Part shown: piece after piece, positions 223 to 56,383 of the stretch
Position numbering within the stretch: position 1 is the stretch's first letter
How the letters are laid out: each line of letters opens with the position of its first letter
NCBI GenBank assembly: GCA_039799085.1
Contig: JBDLTL010000001.1
Coordinates: 1 to 57,645, forward strand
DNA: 57,645 nucleotides
Source of the DNA: Candidatus Parcubacteria bacterium
GTDB lineage: Bacteria; Patescibacteriota; Minisyncoccia; Phycocordibacterales; UBA918
Direction of reading: 5' to 3'
Notes under the pieces: generated by a model
Databases searched by the model: none
What the model saw: the letters and a program-made list of their open reading frames with translations, nothing else
Told to the model about the DNA's origin: nothing
Program-made: the position numbers and the translations under genes

Positions 223-245
223 TGGCGGAAGTGACAGGATTCGAA
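223..245 (-). pseudogene. Orphan tRNA 3' fragment (T-loop, T-stem 3' strand, acceptor 3' strand, discriminator G, encoded CCA)
   Basis: Minus strand reads TTCGAAT-CCTGT-CACTTCC-G-CCA. No T-stem 5' strand (ACAGG) lies upstream. CACTTCC is the exact complement of GGAAGTG in the orphan 5' fragment at 547-572. Confidence 0.6.
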
Positions 246-256
246 ACTTACAGTTT

Positions 257-293
257 CAGTACAAGCTGTCGATATTATTACTTCCTTATGGTC
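257..293 (-). repeat. Family-B short repeat, degenerate or shortened copy (B4)
   Basis: Minus strand GACCATAAGGAAGTAATAATATCGACAGCTTGTACTG shares GACC.., AAGGA(G/A)G, TCGAC and (A/C)(G/T)CTTGT(A/G).TG blocks with B1-B3. It lies 11 nt upstream of the orphan T-loop fragment. Confidence 0.4.
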
Positions 294-313
294 GTAAAAT
301 ATCTGACAACCTT

Positions 314-340
314 CTGAAATATTCTCCCAGAATATTTCAG
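314..340. repeat. Perfect 12-bp hairpin (ctgaaatattct-ccc-agaatatttcag)
   Basis: Exact inverted repeat with a 3-nt loop in non-coding DNA. No flanking T-run, so it is not an obvious terminator. Confidence 0.7.
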
Positions 341-369
341 CCTGCGTGAGCTTTCACCCAACACGCGCT

Positions 370-426
370 GACCAATTTTTAGGGAGACCTTAAGTCGACC
401 ATAAAAATGGAAATGCTCTTGTGGTG
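370..426 (+). repeat. Family-B short repeat, copy B2 (57 nt)
   Basis: GACCAATTTTTAGGGAGACCTTAAGTCGACCATAAAAATGGAAATGCTCTTGTGGTG. The last 26 nt match B3 at 24/26 and B1 at 21/26 by hand alignment. Confidence 0.7.
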
Positions 427-586: not shown

Positions 587-731
587 CGGAAAGGGCGGGA
601 TTTGCACCACAAGAGTATTTCCGAAATTATAGTCGATACAAGCTCTCCTTAATTTCTAGGTCAACCCGCGATAGAGTTTCCCCTATGCCGGTTTTCGAAA
701 CCGGTGCTTTCAACCACTCAGCCACCTTTCC
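587..731 (-). tRNA. tRNA-Ser(CGA) interrupted by a 58-nt insert in the T-loop (87 nt without the insert)
   Basis: GGAAAGG-TG-GCTGAGTGGTTGAAAGC-A-CCGGT-TTCGAAA-ACCGG-variable arm-GCGGG-TT-[58 nt]-CAAAT-CCCGC-CCTTTCC-G. All stems are perfect once 605-662 is removed. Confidence 0.75.
605..662 (-). mobile_element. Family-B element copy B1 (58 nt) inserted between T-loop positions 55 and 56 of tRNA-Ser(CGA)
   Basis: Minus strand GACCTAGAAATTAAGGAGAGCTTGTATCGACTATAATTTCGGAAATACTCTTGTGGTG. Homologous to 370-426 and 54902-54955. No target duplication at the junctions. Confidence 0.65.
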
Positions 732-4761: not shown

Positions 4762-4792
4762 GAAAGAGCGGCGCCTTCGGCGCCGCTCTTTC
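4762..4792 (-). terminator. Terminator of groEL
   Basis: gaaagagcggcgcc / ttcg / gcgccgctctttc, 20 nt beyond the groEL stop. Confidence 0.8.
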
Positions 4793-39917: not shown

Positions 39918-40004
39918 ACTGTAAGTATACCAAAAAGTTCCTCATCCCCGCCTCAACATCGATAAACACAGAAAAGCGCCATGAAGGCGCTTTTCTCTGG
40001 TTTG

Positions 40005-40150
40005 CTGCCCGACAAGGACTCGGTCACGAATCACTAAGTATATTTATTCGCTTCGCTCTAAATCTACCAAGTGTTCTCGACCCCGGCTCGCTGTTCGTCG
40101 CTCTAGGAAAGGAGCGACTCACAACGCTCCGCCTTTCTCGTCCTTTGTCA
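40005..40150 (-). repeat. Family-A repeat copy E2, including an 18-nt copy of the tRNA-Gln 3' end (40005-40022)
   Basis: ctgcccgacaaggactcg is 18/18 identical to 41160-41177. It is followed by gtcacgaatcactaagtatattt..., homologous to 40980 onward. Confidence 0.7.
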
Positions 40151-40156
40151 GATTGG

Positions 40157-40202
40157 GCGAGCAAAAGAAAAACACCCTCAAGGGTGCTTTTCTTTTGCTC
40201 GC
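40157..40202. repeat. Long hairpin with about 20 bp of pairing
   Basis: gcgagcaaaagaaaaacaccct / caa / gggtgcttttcttttgctcgc. Confidence 0.6.
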
Positions 40203-40296
40203 TGGCTGTATGGAATGAAGTTAGAACTTTTTTAAATGAAAAAGCCGCCGTTCCCTTTCGGTACTAGGCGGCTACTGAGACACTAAAGGGCGTTGA

Positions 40297-40893
40297 TCAT
40301 TTGGGTGCCTTCTCACCCATGAAGCGACGGCCGACCAGTTGACTATGCAGATTTTCCAGAATCTCCACACCTACTGATGATACGCCCTTGAGCGAAAGGT
40401 GCGGATTGTCCTTATCTCGTTGCACAGGGCTCGTCTCGAGAAATTTTCGCAGAGCATTGTATGCTTCTGTTTCGAGAAAACCCTGCTGGTCTGCCCCGTT
40501 TTCTTGAAGAGCAAAGTAGGGTCGGATTTCACCGAGAAGTTCCTTGAAGTCAGAATAGCCCTCCAACGCCCGAAACGGGTCTTCGATGTCGACCTCATCC
40601 ATCAAGGATTTTTCAAGAACCGCAATTCCGGTAAGCAGTGATGCGAGACTCGAGAAGTCAATATAGACCTTTCTAGGTGCAAACACGCAGATTAAGTCTG
40701 AAACTCGTCCGAGGGCGATCGCGGCCTGGCCTGCTTCGATAAGACGATAGTAGGTCGGCGAAACTCCTAGCGATTGAGCCATATACTCAGTTGAGAGTTT
40801 TACCGAATTTCTTCTTAGGCGCAGATAAGCACCGAGGAACTTCTGGAGCGGGTTTAGGGCTCCGTTCGGAGCATGTACTCTATTTCTTCCCAT
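40297..40893 (-). CDS. XRE-family helix-turn-helix protein with an unknown C-terminal domain
   Basis: LRLRRNSVKLSTEYMAQSLGVSPTYYRLIEAGQ is an HTH_XRE pattern. It has its own terminator (agccgcctagtaccgaaagggaacggcggcttttt on the minus strand) just after the stop. Confidence 0.8.
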   Translation of the reverse strand: MGRNRVHAPNGALNPLQKFLGAYLRLRRNSVKLSTEYMAQSLGVSPTYYRLIEAGQAAIALGRVSDLICVFAPRKVYIDFSSLASLLTGIAVLEKSLMDEVDIEDPFRALEGYSDFKELLGEIRPYFALQENGADQQGFLETEAYNALRKFLETSPVQRDKDNPHLSLKGVSSVGVEILENLHSQLVGRRFMGEKAPK

Positions 40894-40961: not shown

Positions 40962-41113
40962 CTGCCCGACAGGGACTCGGTCACGAATCACTAAGTATAT
41001 TTGTTCACTACGTTCCAAATCTACTAAGTGTTCTCGACCCAGACTCGCCGACAAGCCCTCGCTACGCTCGTCTTGTATACCGGCTCCGTCTTTCGAGTCC
41101 CTGTCCGGCTAGC
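40962..41113 (-). repeat. Family-A repeat copy E1, bounded by a direct (40962-40979) and an inverted (41094-41113) copy of the tRNA-Gln 3' end
   Basis: ctgcccgacagggactcg is 17/18 identical to the tRNA end. cgagtccctgtccggctagc on the same strand is its near reverse complement. The core is homologous to E2, E3 and E4. Confidence 0.7.
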
Positions 41114-41159: not shown

Positions 41160-41230
41160 CTGCCCGACAAGGACTCGAACCTCGATAGACGGTACCAGAA
41201 ACCGTAGTCCTACCATTAGACGATCGGGCA
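41160..41230 (-). tRNA. tRNA-Gln(CTG)
   Basis: TGCCCGA-TC-GTCTAATGGTAGGAC-T-ACGGT-TTCTGGT-ACCGT-CTAT-CGAGG-TTCGAGT-CCTTG-TCGGGCA-G. The U1-A72 pair is typical of bacterial tRNA-Gln. Confidence 0.92.
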
Positions 41231-41234
41231 ATAT

Positions 41235-41372
41235 TTGATTGTGCATTTACCCGAATCGGATAATGGGAGGACGGGAGTCCTCCTGCCAAGCGAGCGAGGG
41301 TCGCGGAAATGTTTACATTTCCATGACCGAGCGAGTGCAGGCAGAAAGATTTGGACCTGTTCCAAATCTTGG
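41235..41372 (-). repeat. 138-nt hairpin-rich element (D) bounded by a perfect 21-bp direct repeat (41214-41234 / 41373-41393) of the tRNA-Gln 5' end
   Basis: cattagacgatcgggcaatat occurs twice. The interior has three clean hairpins (aagatttgg/ccaaatctt, ggaaatg/catttcc, ggaggac/gtcctcc). Confidence 0.7.
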
Positions 41373-41478
41373 CATTAGACGATCGGGCAATATGTTGGGG
41401 CGACATTGCGAAGCTTTGTCGCCCAGTGGCAGTATAGTGCCAGAAACTAGAAAACTTTCAAGTACTCCTCTCCCCTCC

Positions 41479-43143: not shown

Positions 43144-43175
43144 AAAAGAGCGGCGCCGTAGGCGCCGCTCTTTTT
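43144..43175 (-). terminator. Terminator
   Basis: aaaagagcggcgcc / gta / ggcgccgctctttt. Confidence 0.85.
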
Positions 43176-54685: not shown

Positions 54686-54802
54686 ATATAGAAAAATACC
54701 CAAGCGGTCCACCTCCAAAATTGGTAGCAAAATGCTCTTGCCGTCATTCTACCACAGACCGTATTCTCGCCCTGTTTATAACTTTGCTTACGATGGGAAA
54801 TT

Positions 54803-54972
54803 ATGGGACTTGGTCACAAGTCACTCCTTTCAGTCGTGCTCGCGACCCCACCTCGCCGACAAGCCCTCGCTTCGTTCGTCTTGTGTACCGGCTCCGGCTT
54901 TGACCTAATTTTCAAGGAGTGAAACGACTATGAAAATGGAAATGCTCTTGTAGTGCAAGTCCCATCTCCAAC
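54803..54972. mobile_element. Composite: T-arm fragment (54803-54812), family-A copy E3 (54813-54901), nested family-B copy B3 (54902-54955), inverted tRNA-Leu 3'-end copy (54956-54972)
   Basis: atgggacttg and caagtcccat(ctccaac) are inverted and match the T-arm/acceptor of tRNA-Leu(CAA) at 55021-55046. B3 sits precisely at the junction that is uninterrupted in copy E1 (41093/41094). Confidence 0.65.
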
Positions 54973-54984
54973 TACAAAATACAA

Positions 54985-55012
54985 CGACCGCAAACTTGGC
55001 AGTTTGCGGTCG
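54985..55012 (-). terminator. Terminator downstream of tRNA-Leu
   Basis: cgaccgcaaact / tggc / agtttgcggtcg, with T-runs on both sides. Confidence 0.75.
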
Positions 55013-55020
55013 GTATTTTG

Positions 55021-55101
55021 TGCTGGAGATGGGACTTGAACCCATAAGCCTTGCGGCATTCGATTTTGAGTCGAACGTGTATACCATTCCACCACTCCAG
55101 C
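55021..55101 (-). tRNA. tRNA-Leu(CAA)
   Basis: GCTGGAG-TG-GTGGAATGGTATACAC-G-TTCGA-CTCAAAA-TCGAA-variable arm-ATGGG-TTCAAGT-CCCAT-CTCCAGC-A. Confidence 0.9.
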
Positions 55102-55202
55102 GAATGCACATGAGTGTAGCAAATAATATCACTTACATCTAGTTTTGCGCCCGCAGTGCAAAGCACTGCGGGCGCATCAGTTCTATATGCTACACTTTTG
55201 GC

Positions 55203-56280: not shown

Positions 56281-56383
56281 GGGAGCAAGGGCTTGTCGGC
56301 GAGCTGAGGTCGAGGGTACTTAGAAAAATATGAGCGAAACGAAATATTTTACCTAGTAGCTCGTGACTGAATCCTCGTGGGCC
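56281..56383 (+). repeat. Family-A repeat copy E4 (left-truncated) ending in a 15-nt direct repeat of the tRNA-Trp 3' end (56369-56383 = 56223-56237)
   Basis: gggcttgtcggcgag..ggtcgag..acttag....cgtgac is the reverse-complement orientation of the E1-E3 core. It is followed by gaatcctcgtgggcc. Confidence 0.7.

Follow-up and report, generated by a model that had tools for sequence, protein, structure and literature searches.

Patescibacteria are ultra-small organisms with genomes of ~1 Mb and are thought to be poor in mobile elements. Among the described systems closest to the elements reported here, the IS200/IS605-derived PATEs and the REP/RAYT elements are tiny hairpin elements, which insert without target duplication 3' of a short specific sequence and whose target is read via base pairing with the end of the element. 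They have two distinct end hairpins and use the targets TTAC and TTGAT, and in REPs the palindrome is preceded by GTAG; to our knowledge, no PATE or REP/RAYT element is specific for the tRNA T-loop. Integrative elements that target tRNA genes with a crossover in the T-loop produce a direct repeat extending to just past the tRNA's 3' end, restore the tRNA and form tandem arrays. Integron attC sites are folded single-strand attachment sites and act similarly to the site of the CTX phage. In the latter, an IMEX, two inverted imperfect copies of the target stand ~90 nt apart, one functional and two dead sites result, and the recombinase acts in trans (PMC3089051). The IS91 family makes no target duplication and uses the targets 5'-CTTG, GTTC and CTCG, with T at position 2 (PMC13181058); its members have subterminal palindromes and a fixed orientation, insert as single-stranded circles and can carry adjacent DNA along (PMC13181058). 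Moreover, the non-canonical tRNA introns of the Thermoproteales, which are short and conserved and occupy unusual positions including the T-arm, are on record as transposed (PMC4033280, PMC4090602).

Here we analysed a locus beside tRNA-Leu(CAA) in a stretch of 57,645 nt (the window). The window encodes MiaA, ParB, RelA, TopA, GroEL/ES, RNase J, SerRS and DprA and is bacterial, chromosomal DNA; the genomes nearest to it are Paceibacteria, within Patescibacteria/CPR. Positions 54803-55019 are a non-autonomous element of ~215 bp (family A) inserted at the 3' end of tRNA-Leu(CAA), into which a non-autonomous element of 54 nt (B3, family B) was inserted later; the explanation as a whole, with a movement that would be of the HUH type, is on balance somewhat more probable than not.

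Layout of the tRNA-Leu(CAA) locus

On the forward strand, the element begins with a left arm (Xbar_L, atgggacttg, 54803-54812), which is the reverse complement of tRNA-Leu positions 56-65 and has only 10 nt here compared with 19 nt in the relatives; the same 10-mer recurs identically within tRNA-Leu at 55029-55038. It is followed on the same strand by the A core of 89 nt (54813-54901; nhmmer 59 bits, E 1e-16), which is composed of the P1 hairpin region (GTCACAAGTCAC...GCGACC) and a near-invariant 58-nt motif (GACCCCACCTCGCCGACAAGCCCTCGCTTCGTTCGTCTTGTGTACCGGCTCCGGCTTT), ends with the bases ccggctccggcttt and shows ~90% identity to the core of the orthologous copy in L028. Then comes B3 (54902-54955, forward strand), which is assigned to the B family by a profile E-value of 1e-14, a clean indel and a covarying hairpin, and which consists of GACC, the 7-bp covarying hairpin and the tail GGAAATGCTCTTGTAGTG, in this order. 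In the next segment, X' (caagtcccatctccaac, 54956-54972, forward strand), tRNA-Leu positions 56 to ~72 are copied imperfectly and in inverted orientation, with one mismatch to the tRNA. The initial annotation had described both flanks of the composite as inverted pieces of tRNA-Leu; this holds for the right one, X', and the left one is instead a direct repeat on the forward strand. Between X' and the tRNA gene lies a spacer (54973-55019) with a hairpin at 54985-55012, which has a 12-bp stem and is predicted as a terminator on both strands; it is supplied by the element and serves tRNA-Leu too. The arrangement CTACAAA...hairpin...TTTGTG is common to all A copies. Finally, tRNA-Leu(CAA) itself is located on the reverse strand at 55020-55101, as called by both ARAGORN and Rfam, and its 3' segment is both the target and the repeat. 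In addition, the block of promoter, tRNA-Leu and element (window ~54790-55128) flips between parB and miaA among the relatives: its orientation is the same in the window, L060 and L064, and opposite in the other relatives (L028 and the others of the L060-L068 set). The breakpoints of this block in the window are at short inverted TTTGCT/AGCAAA sequences.

The occupied and the empty junction

The canonical A copy E1 (arm 40962-40979, core 40980-41093, X' 41094-41109, forward strand; 66 bits), which is next to tRNA-Gln, has no B element, and its unoccupied junction reads ccggctccgtcttt directly followed by cgagtccctgtccggc (41080-41109). When E1, the copy at tRNA-Leu (E3) and the orthologous copy of L028 were aligned with MAFFT, a single gap of 54 nt was obtained, exactly between CTTT and C(A/G)AGTCC. 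The gap falls between ...CCGGCTTT and CAAGTCCC, with the flanks ...CCGG(C/T)CTTT and C(A/G)AGTCC, and thus the earlier proposal that B3 sits precisely at the boundary of the A core and the T-loop-like segment is borne out by this three-way alignment. The same relative position as in B1 had also been claimed, and it was recovered: B1 is placed between T55 and C56 of tRNA-Ser(CGA). B3 gave global alignment z-scores of 7.9 against B1 and 9.8 against B2 (2000 shuffles), and a profile search of the window returned exactly three B copies with E-values from 1e-10 to 1e-14. The initial annotation had itself raised the reading that E1 and E3 differ by an ordinary indel and that B3 resembles B1 and B2 by chance; the shortness of B alone speaks for it, but it is refuted by these z-scores and E-values, the same boundaries are found in 19 further B copies, and its probability is negligible.

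Furthermore, when the A copies were scored for B at this junction, as had been suggested, none of the 16 other canonical copies carried it, including the orthologous copy of L028 and that of the closest relative L060. The states of the orthologous tRNA-Leu(CAA) locus (see below) show that the arrival of B3 postdates the split of the window lineage from L028 and L060. B is also found beside three core families, between arms and in T-loops, and together with its absence from the 16 other A copies this agrees with its description as a discrete insertion. As to polymorphism among strains, the only other contigs with the MiaA of the window were 100% identical, and the nearest ParB was 79% identical.

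The B family

The set analysed comprises 20 copies, three from the window and 17 from metagenomes. The exact-pattern scan of metagenome contigs gave 20 loci, 19 of them real, and a profile search, in which CAA was not required after the element, gave two more copies. The B elements are 52-58 nt in length and start with GACC(T)A at the 5' end. Their 7-bp hairpin is paired to 97.6%, which is reached by none of 500 shuffles, and double (compensatory) changes occur in all seven pairs; GGAG and GAC are the loop motifs, and the 3' end is an almost invariant tail of 18 nt, GGAAAT(A/G)CTCTTGTGGTG. The three copies of the window differ from one another by ~20-25%.

The element is followed by C(A/G)AnTC in 15 of the 20 copies (P ~9e-15, given that CAA was forced by the search) and directly preceded by TT in 12. 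When the copies were collapsed to 12 conservative contexts, P was still ~4e-5, and the enrichment of T-loop sequence in the flanks, for which the earlier work had asked a statistical test, is therefore supported at both levels. The copy of L010, for which the search did not require CAA, has CGATTCC directly after it, and so CAA is part of the target and not of B. In every copy the orientation relative to the T-loop-like sequence is constant (sense), and there is no target duplication, as no bases are repeated in the flanks of the 20 copies. Most of the occupied sites are non-functional 3' fragments of tRNAs, in line with the suggestion that B recognises a T-loop-like target even outside a functional tRNA.

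With regard to the neighbouring sequence, B follows a canonical A core only in E3, an A2-type core in L043, L047, L058 and L010, and a C-type core in the window (223-426) and in L044, L048, L050, L055 and L056; it is directly between tRNA-derived arms in L045, and inside tRNA T-loops or duplicates of tRNA 3' ends in B1, L041 and L057. In every core family, some copies have B and others lack it. Some of the B copies may have travelled as composites with their core and not by separate insertions, and the number of independent events would then be smaller. Two copies are unusual: the one at 1007-1097 of L040 holds a 39-nt insertion between its hairpin and 3' tail, and the one at 103-157 of L052 (reverse strand) lies within an A variant, in front of CAAATCG, and not at the junction of core and X'.

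B1 (58 nt, 605-662, reverse strand) lies in the T-loop of tRNA-Ser(CGA) (587-731, reverse strand), of which all four stems are intact. The tRNA with B1 is found by Rfam with 43 bits and missed by ARAGORN, and exact deletion of the 58 nt yields a canonical tRNA-Ser(CGA) that ARAGORN detects. In the fold of the interrupted tRNA, the junctions are inside a continuous helix (U54-A58, U55-A57, G-C56). B2 (57 nt, 370-426, forward strand) is at the end of a C-family element next to tRNA-Ser(GGA), which has its arm at 223-245 and its core at 246-369 on the forward strand. This element (223-369) contains a hairpin GAAAC-TTACA-GTTTC followed by AGTAC, and its arm (tggcggaagtgacaggattcgaa) corresponds to a tRNA 3' end including TGG (CCA), which matches neither of the adjacent tRNA-Ser genes. 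B was also considered as a promoter and as a small ORF, and both were rejected: its TTGACC and TATGAA-like boxes are 23-27 nt apart and no promoter was predicted, and the peptide of AAGGAG...ATG is not conserved, with ATG missing in B1.

The A family

Using the pattern CTCGCCGACAAGCCCTYGCT, 14 loci of Patescibacteria were found in the genome collection; 23 high-GC matches in genome contigs were discarded as chance, since their similarity is confined to the 20-mer. The common layout is an arm, a variable hairpin region, the near-invariant 58-mer, X', the CTACAAA...hairpin...TTTGTG segment and a convergent tRNA gene. In the arm, the stretch of the adjacent tRNA between C56 and a point slightly beyond the discriminator appears as its reverse complement, so that the arm is a direct repeat of the tRNA end; these repeats measure 19-21 nt (C56 to C74 of the tRNA). 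X' repeats this tRNA segment imperfectly in inverted orientation, beginning at C56. The tRNAs beside A copies are those for Leu (three anticodons), Gln, Trp, Gly (two anticodons), Ser, and Arg or Val. As the arms track the adjacent tRNA, they are specific to the locus and do not represent ends of the element. Covariation is seen in the helix that flanks the 58-mer, with pair 8:54 as AU, CG, GC and UA. The inverted arms are 89-115 nt apart, or 143 nt in E3 with B3, and a single-strand DNA fold pairs them (z -2.35) though they are often mismatched. The near-invariance of the 58-mer could be caused by a host function.

Two further A-type elements are present in the window, and each of its five tRNA genes has at least one tiny element of the A, B or related families. 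E2 (40002-40210, forward strand) is an A2 variant further from tRNA-Gln than E1, with a perfect 21-nt repeat of the tRNA-Gln end (40002-40022), a degenerate X' (40137-40151) and its own hairpin (40157-40202). E4 (56283-56382, reverse strand) is a truncated copy downstream of tRNA-Trp; its arm (56363-56382) repeats the 3' end of tRNA-Trp, and its complete counterpart is found in L012. An origin by tRNA-primed reverse transcription, with the arm as primer-binding site, was rejected, as the repeat of E2 has the 3-nt genomic trailer CAA and not CCA. It was also judged unlikely that A is an RNA gene with a conserved closing helix, since complementarity of the arms is not maintained and there are relatives with an empty site.

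The orthologous locus in related genomes

The orthologous parB/tRNA-Leu(CAA)/miaA locus was retrieved through ParB homologues, and 12 related genomes were compared. The site is empty in L061, L066, L067 and L012. A alone is present in L028, with a core of ~90% identity, and in L060, the nearest relative (ParB 79%), in which the core is decayed and scores 23 bits vs ~60. L065 and L068 have A variants with an extra hairpin inside X', L062 and L064 have C-family elements, and L063 has a tandem array together with a 5'-side element; A with B is found in the window only. From these several states at one orthologous site it follows that A is inserted DNA and not a fixed host gene; A is itself a mobile insertion and no fixed landmark for B. 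The states further show several element families competing for one tRNA-Leu(CAA) site. With at least six states of this site in 12 related genomes, the ends of tRNA genes are a hidden hot spot of turnover.

Placement of the elements in the T-loop

The positions of A and B fit one rule: read on the antisense strand of the T-loop sequence, each lies directly 3' of NT(T/C)G, that is, between T55 and C56. The A cores start right after CTTG, CTCG, ATCG, TTCG or TTTG in 14 of the 16 copies checked, with L014 (TTAG) and the window copy E4 (TTCA) as the exceptions, and B, read on the reverse strand, starts right after NT(T/C)G in 19 of 20 copies. Moreover, the A core opens with GTCACAAG and B, read as its reverse complement, with CAC(C/T)ACAAG, CACAAG being common to the two, and it is the CACAAG-containing end of the element that adjoins the tetranucleotide. 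The pairing of the start of A with the tail of B3 in the fold of E3 reflects this shared end. B3 is found at the junction of core and X', and in its orientation, because X' offers a T55-C56 target on the opposite strand.

Proposed mode of movement and alternative explanations

We suppose that the A unit ends with its own tRNA 3' segment, which would restore the tRNA and leave the original segment as a direct repeat, and that X', the inverted segment, would present the CTTG target on the other strand as the landing place of B3. A and B may move as folded single-stranded DNA, driven in trans by an enzyme of the HUH rolling-circle type, either IS91-like or IS200/IS605-like, with the end of the element presumably pairing with the target (CUUG with CAAG). 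A unit reaching from one CT(C/T)G to its own arm ending with CT(C/T)G would, once inserted, make the tRNA complete again and would also form head-to-tail arrays; arrays of this kind are seen in L026, L021, L063 and in E2/E1 of the window. As for a far end of the IS91 type, the A unit ends with CT(C/T)G by construction (the tRNA arm), and B ends with GGTC, its sole hairpin being 6 nt away. Several points count against this explanation. There is no candidate enzyme among the ~50 ORFs of the window, where no gene for an integrase, transposase, HUH protein, TnpA or RAYT was detected, and neither free nor circular forms were observed; B carries a single hairpin instead of a subterminal pair, and the GGTC at its far end does not belong to the known cleavage tetranucleotides of IS91; the ~20-25% divergence of the window B copies bears no mark of recent activity; the possible composite travel of core and B lowers the count of independent insertions; and it is left unexplained how the A core acquires the arm for a new tRNA. 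In addition, the near-invariance of the 58-mer is also compatible with a host function, and a recombinase that acts on a folded attachment hairpin would likewise be consistent with the direct repeat and the inverted copy.

The last point leads to the main alternative, which we regard as rather unlikely, namely that A integrates by site-specific recombination: its inverted arms Xbar and X' would pair in single-stranded DNA and mimic the tRNA gene's 3' end for a tyrosine recombinase supplied in trans, B being a module carried or exchanged in the same reaction. The geometry of A equals the aftermath of CTX phage integration, with one functional site and two dead inverted att copies ~90 bp apart (PMC3089051), and most of the direct repeats are perfect 19-mers that extend from the T-loop slightly beyond the discriminator, as with tRNA-targeting integrases. 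The extra hairpins, often in X' where the T-stem and acceptor parts meet, and the left repeat of E1, whose T-stem part resembles X' and whose acceptor part resembles the tRNA, point in the same direction, but this hybrid-repeat pattern is absent from L005 and L028. Moreover, B has no repeat at all and can occupy a tRNA T-loop by itself, the complementarity of X' to the left arm is often poor, the hairpin duplex is without the 5' half of the T-arm that a two-armed recombinase core site needs, and no recombinase gene is near any copy of the window.

Two other explanations start from RNA. B could be an intervening sequence at the RNA level, either an intron in the T-loop or a spacer that is excised, and could spread through reverse splicing and reverse transcription, for which one could cite B1 in the otherwise intact tRNA-Ser(CGA), whose exact removal restores the tRNA, the constant sense orientation of B to the T-loop sequence, the covarying hairpin with a possible pseudoknot (AAGGAG with CUCUU) and the transposed introns known among archaeal tRNAs (PMC4033280, PMC4090602). 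But the host is bacterial, with MiaA, DprA and RNase J present; no bulge-helix-bulge is formed, the junctions being inside a continuous helix; Rfam gave no ribozyme or intron match; a complete tRNA context applies to at most 1-3 of the 20 copies; and no reverse transcriptase is encoded in the window, which makes this origin improbable. Hardly better placed, and if anything slightly worse, is the idea that A and B are RNA or terminator modules of tRNA operons that benefit the host, for example a tRNA-minihelix-like small RNA or a processing signal, maintained by selection, with B as an optional domain gained by duplication or gene conversion. The nearly invariant 58-mer in Paceibacteria, Saccharibacteria, Kaiserbacteria and Nomurabacteria, a compensatory change in P1 between orthologous E3 and L028 (CAC:GUG vs CGC:GCG), the bidirectional terminator supplied by the element and the presence of an element at all five tRNA genes of the window accord with it. 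Against it, the site is empty in 4 of the 12 genomes and taken by unrelated families or arrays in others, the A copy of L060 is decaying (23 bits vs ~60), the closing helix is not kept complementary, and no element-borne promoter is evident.

Comparison with described elements and significance

On the preferred reading, that of elements moved by an HUH-type enzyme, the IS91 family (HUH, rolling-circle; relatives ISCR and Helitrons) is a close parallel: A and B share with it the lack of target duplication, a tetranucleotide target, the fixed orientation and hairpins near the ends, the IS91 tetranucleotides are exactly present in the T-loop region GGTTC(A/G)AGTCC, and the A repeat is explained as an element-borne tRNA end and not as a target duplication. 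Unlike IS91, however, A and B are non-coding and of 54 to ~215 nt, no HUH transposase is found among the ~50 window ORFs, B has a single hairpin and a target preference beyond four bases (C(A/G)AnTCC), and A has tRNA-matching arms that rebuild the tRNA. As in REPs, many A copies have GTAG ahead of the palindrome when the tRNA strand is read; in contrast to PATEs, B has a single 7-bp hairpin, and CUUG/CAAG pairing is possible but not at the foot of the hairpin. The inverted arms of A, with one functional target and two dead copies, resemble CTX-type IMEX, but the target is the 3' end of a tRNA gene and not dif (XerCD) or attI, there is no phage or cassette cargo, and a highly conserved three-way junction takes the place of the neutral spacer of CTX and attC. 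The direct repeat of A, from inside the tRNA to its 3' end, is like that of tRNA-targeting elements with tyrosine integrases, and B has none; these A elements differ in being ~200 nt, with no integrase in the element or the window, in the use of many tRNAs by one core family and in the internal inverted att copy. The otherwise intact interrupted tRNA recalls the Thermoproteales introns, but the host here is bacterial, there is no bulge-helix-bulge and B is mostly in non-functional tRNA fragments. Two further classes were dismissed for B: a group I intron, as 52-58 nt compare with a catalytic core of >200 nt and Rfam gave no match at E up to 10, and a DDE-type MITE, as there is no target duplication and the sole inverted symmetry (TTG...CAA) comes from the T-loop itself.

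Neither A nor B was assigned a family in Rfam, searched at gathering thresholds and at E up to 10, and the only matches were microRNA-like ones to the long hairpin; the A and B patterns had 0 matches in IMG/VR viral contigs; and no description of the elements was found in the full-text literature. The A and B families are thus undescribed: their features are of known kinds (miniature non-autonomous and tRNA-targeting integrative elements), and the combination was not found reported. Tentatively, and with more doubt than for the locus itself, we suggest that A, B, the C family, the X' hairpin and the 5'-side elements form an undescribed class of miniature structured mobile elements confined to Patescibacteria, which would home to the tRNA T-loop and 3' end and to their own T-loop-mimicking arms, rebuild the tRNA and be moved in trans by an unrecognised enzyme acting on single-stranded DNA. 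If this is true, B would have no known precedent among bacterial elements in its specific insertion between T55 and C56, which is possible even within an otherwise intact tRNA gene. Since every tRNA gene of the 57-kb stretch has at least one tiny element, the activity of mobile elements would be unexpected for Patescibacteria. The rule of NT(T/C)G with CACAAG offers a handle for finding the enzyme, conceivably a recombinase or transposase of compact size whose guide is structure or base pairing. In practical terms, interrupted genes such as tRNA-Ser(CGA) escape standard tRNA finders, annotation can be misled by the tRNA-like fragments, and the presence or absence of an element could mark strains of uncultured lineages at a fine scale.

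Other small repeats and inserts

A hairpin of 23-32 nt (e.g. acgtaaagc...gctttact) occurs in X' between the T-stem and acceptor parts, at positions 65 and 66, in L044, L048, L050, L047, L043, L010, L062, L063, L065 and L068; this could represent either a fourth small element or a branch built into the arm. On the 5' side of tRNA-Gln in the window (41218-41394), ~135 nt (41239-41373) are inserted between the copies of a 21-nt direct repeat of the tRNA 5' end (cattagacgatcgggcaatat), and this segment has an A-like hairpin, GGTCATGGAAATG...CATTTCCGCGACC; a similar 5'-side element is beside tRNA-Leu at 2311-2425 of L063. Between E2 and E1 there is an HTH_3/XRE-type gene (40297-40893, reverse strand), which may be the cargo of an older insertion. 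In addition, a tandem pentamer (TCGCT)2, usually TCGCTTCGCTC, is located at the hairpin tips of all core families, both in the window and in the other loci; it is found in the A, A2 and C copies of the window (e.g. 40063-40075, 41060-41072 and 56335-56347) and may be a putative protein-binding site. Finally, two near-identical GC-rich palindromes of 29 nt (AAAGAGCGGCGCC..GGCGCCGCTCTTT) are present 38 kb apart at 4763-4791 and 43145-43173 of the window, and are probably terminator hairpins of a shared type.
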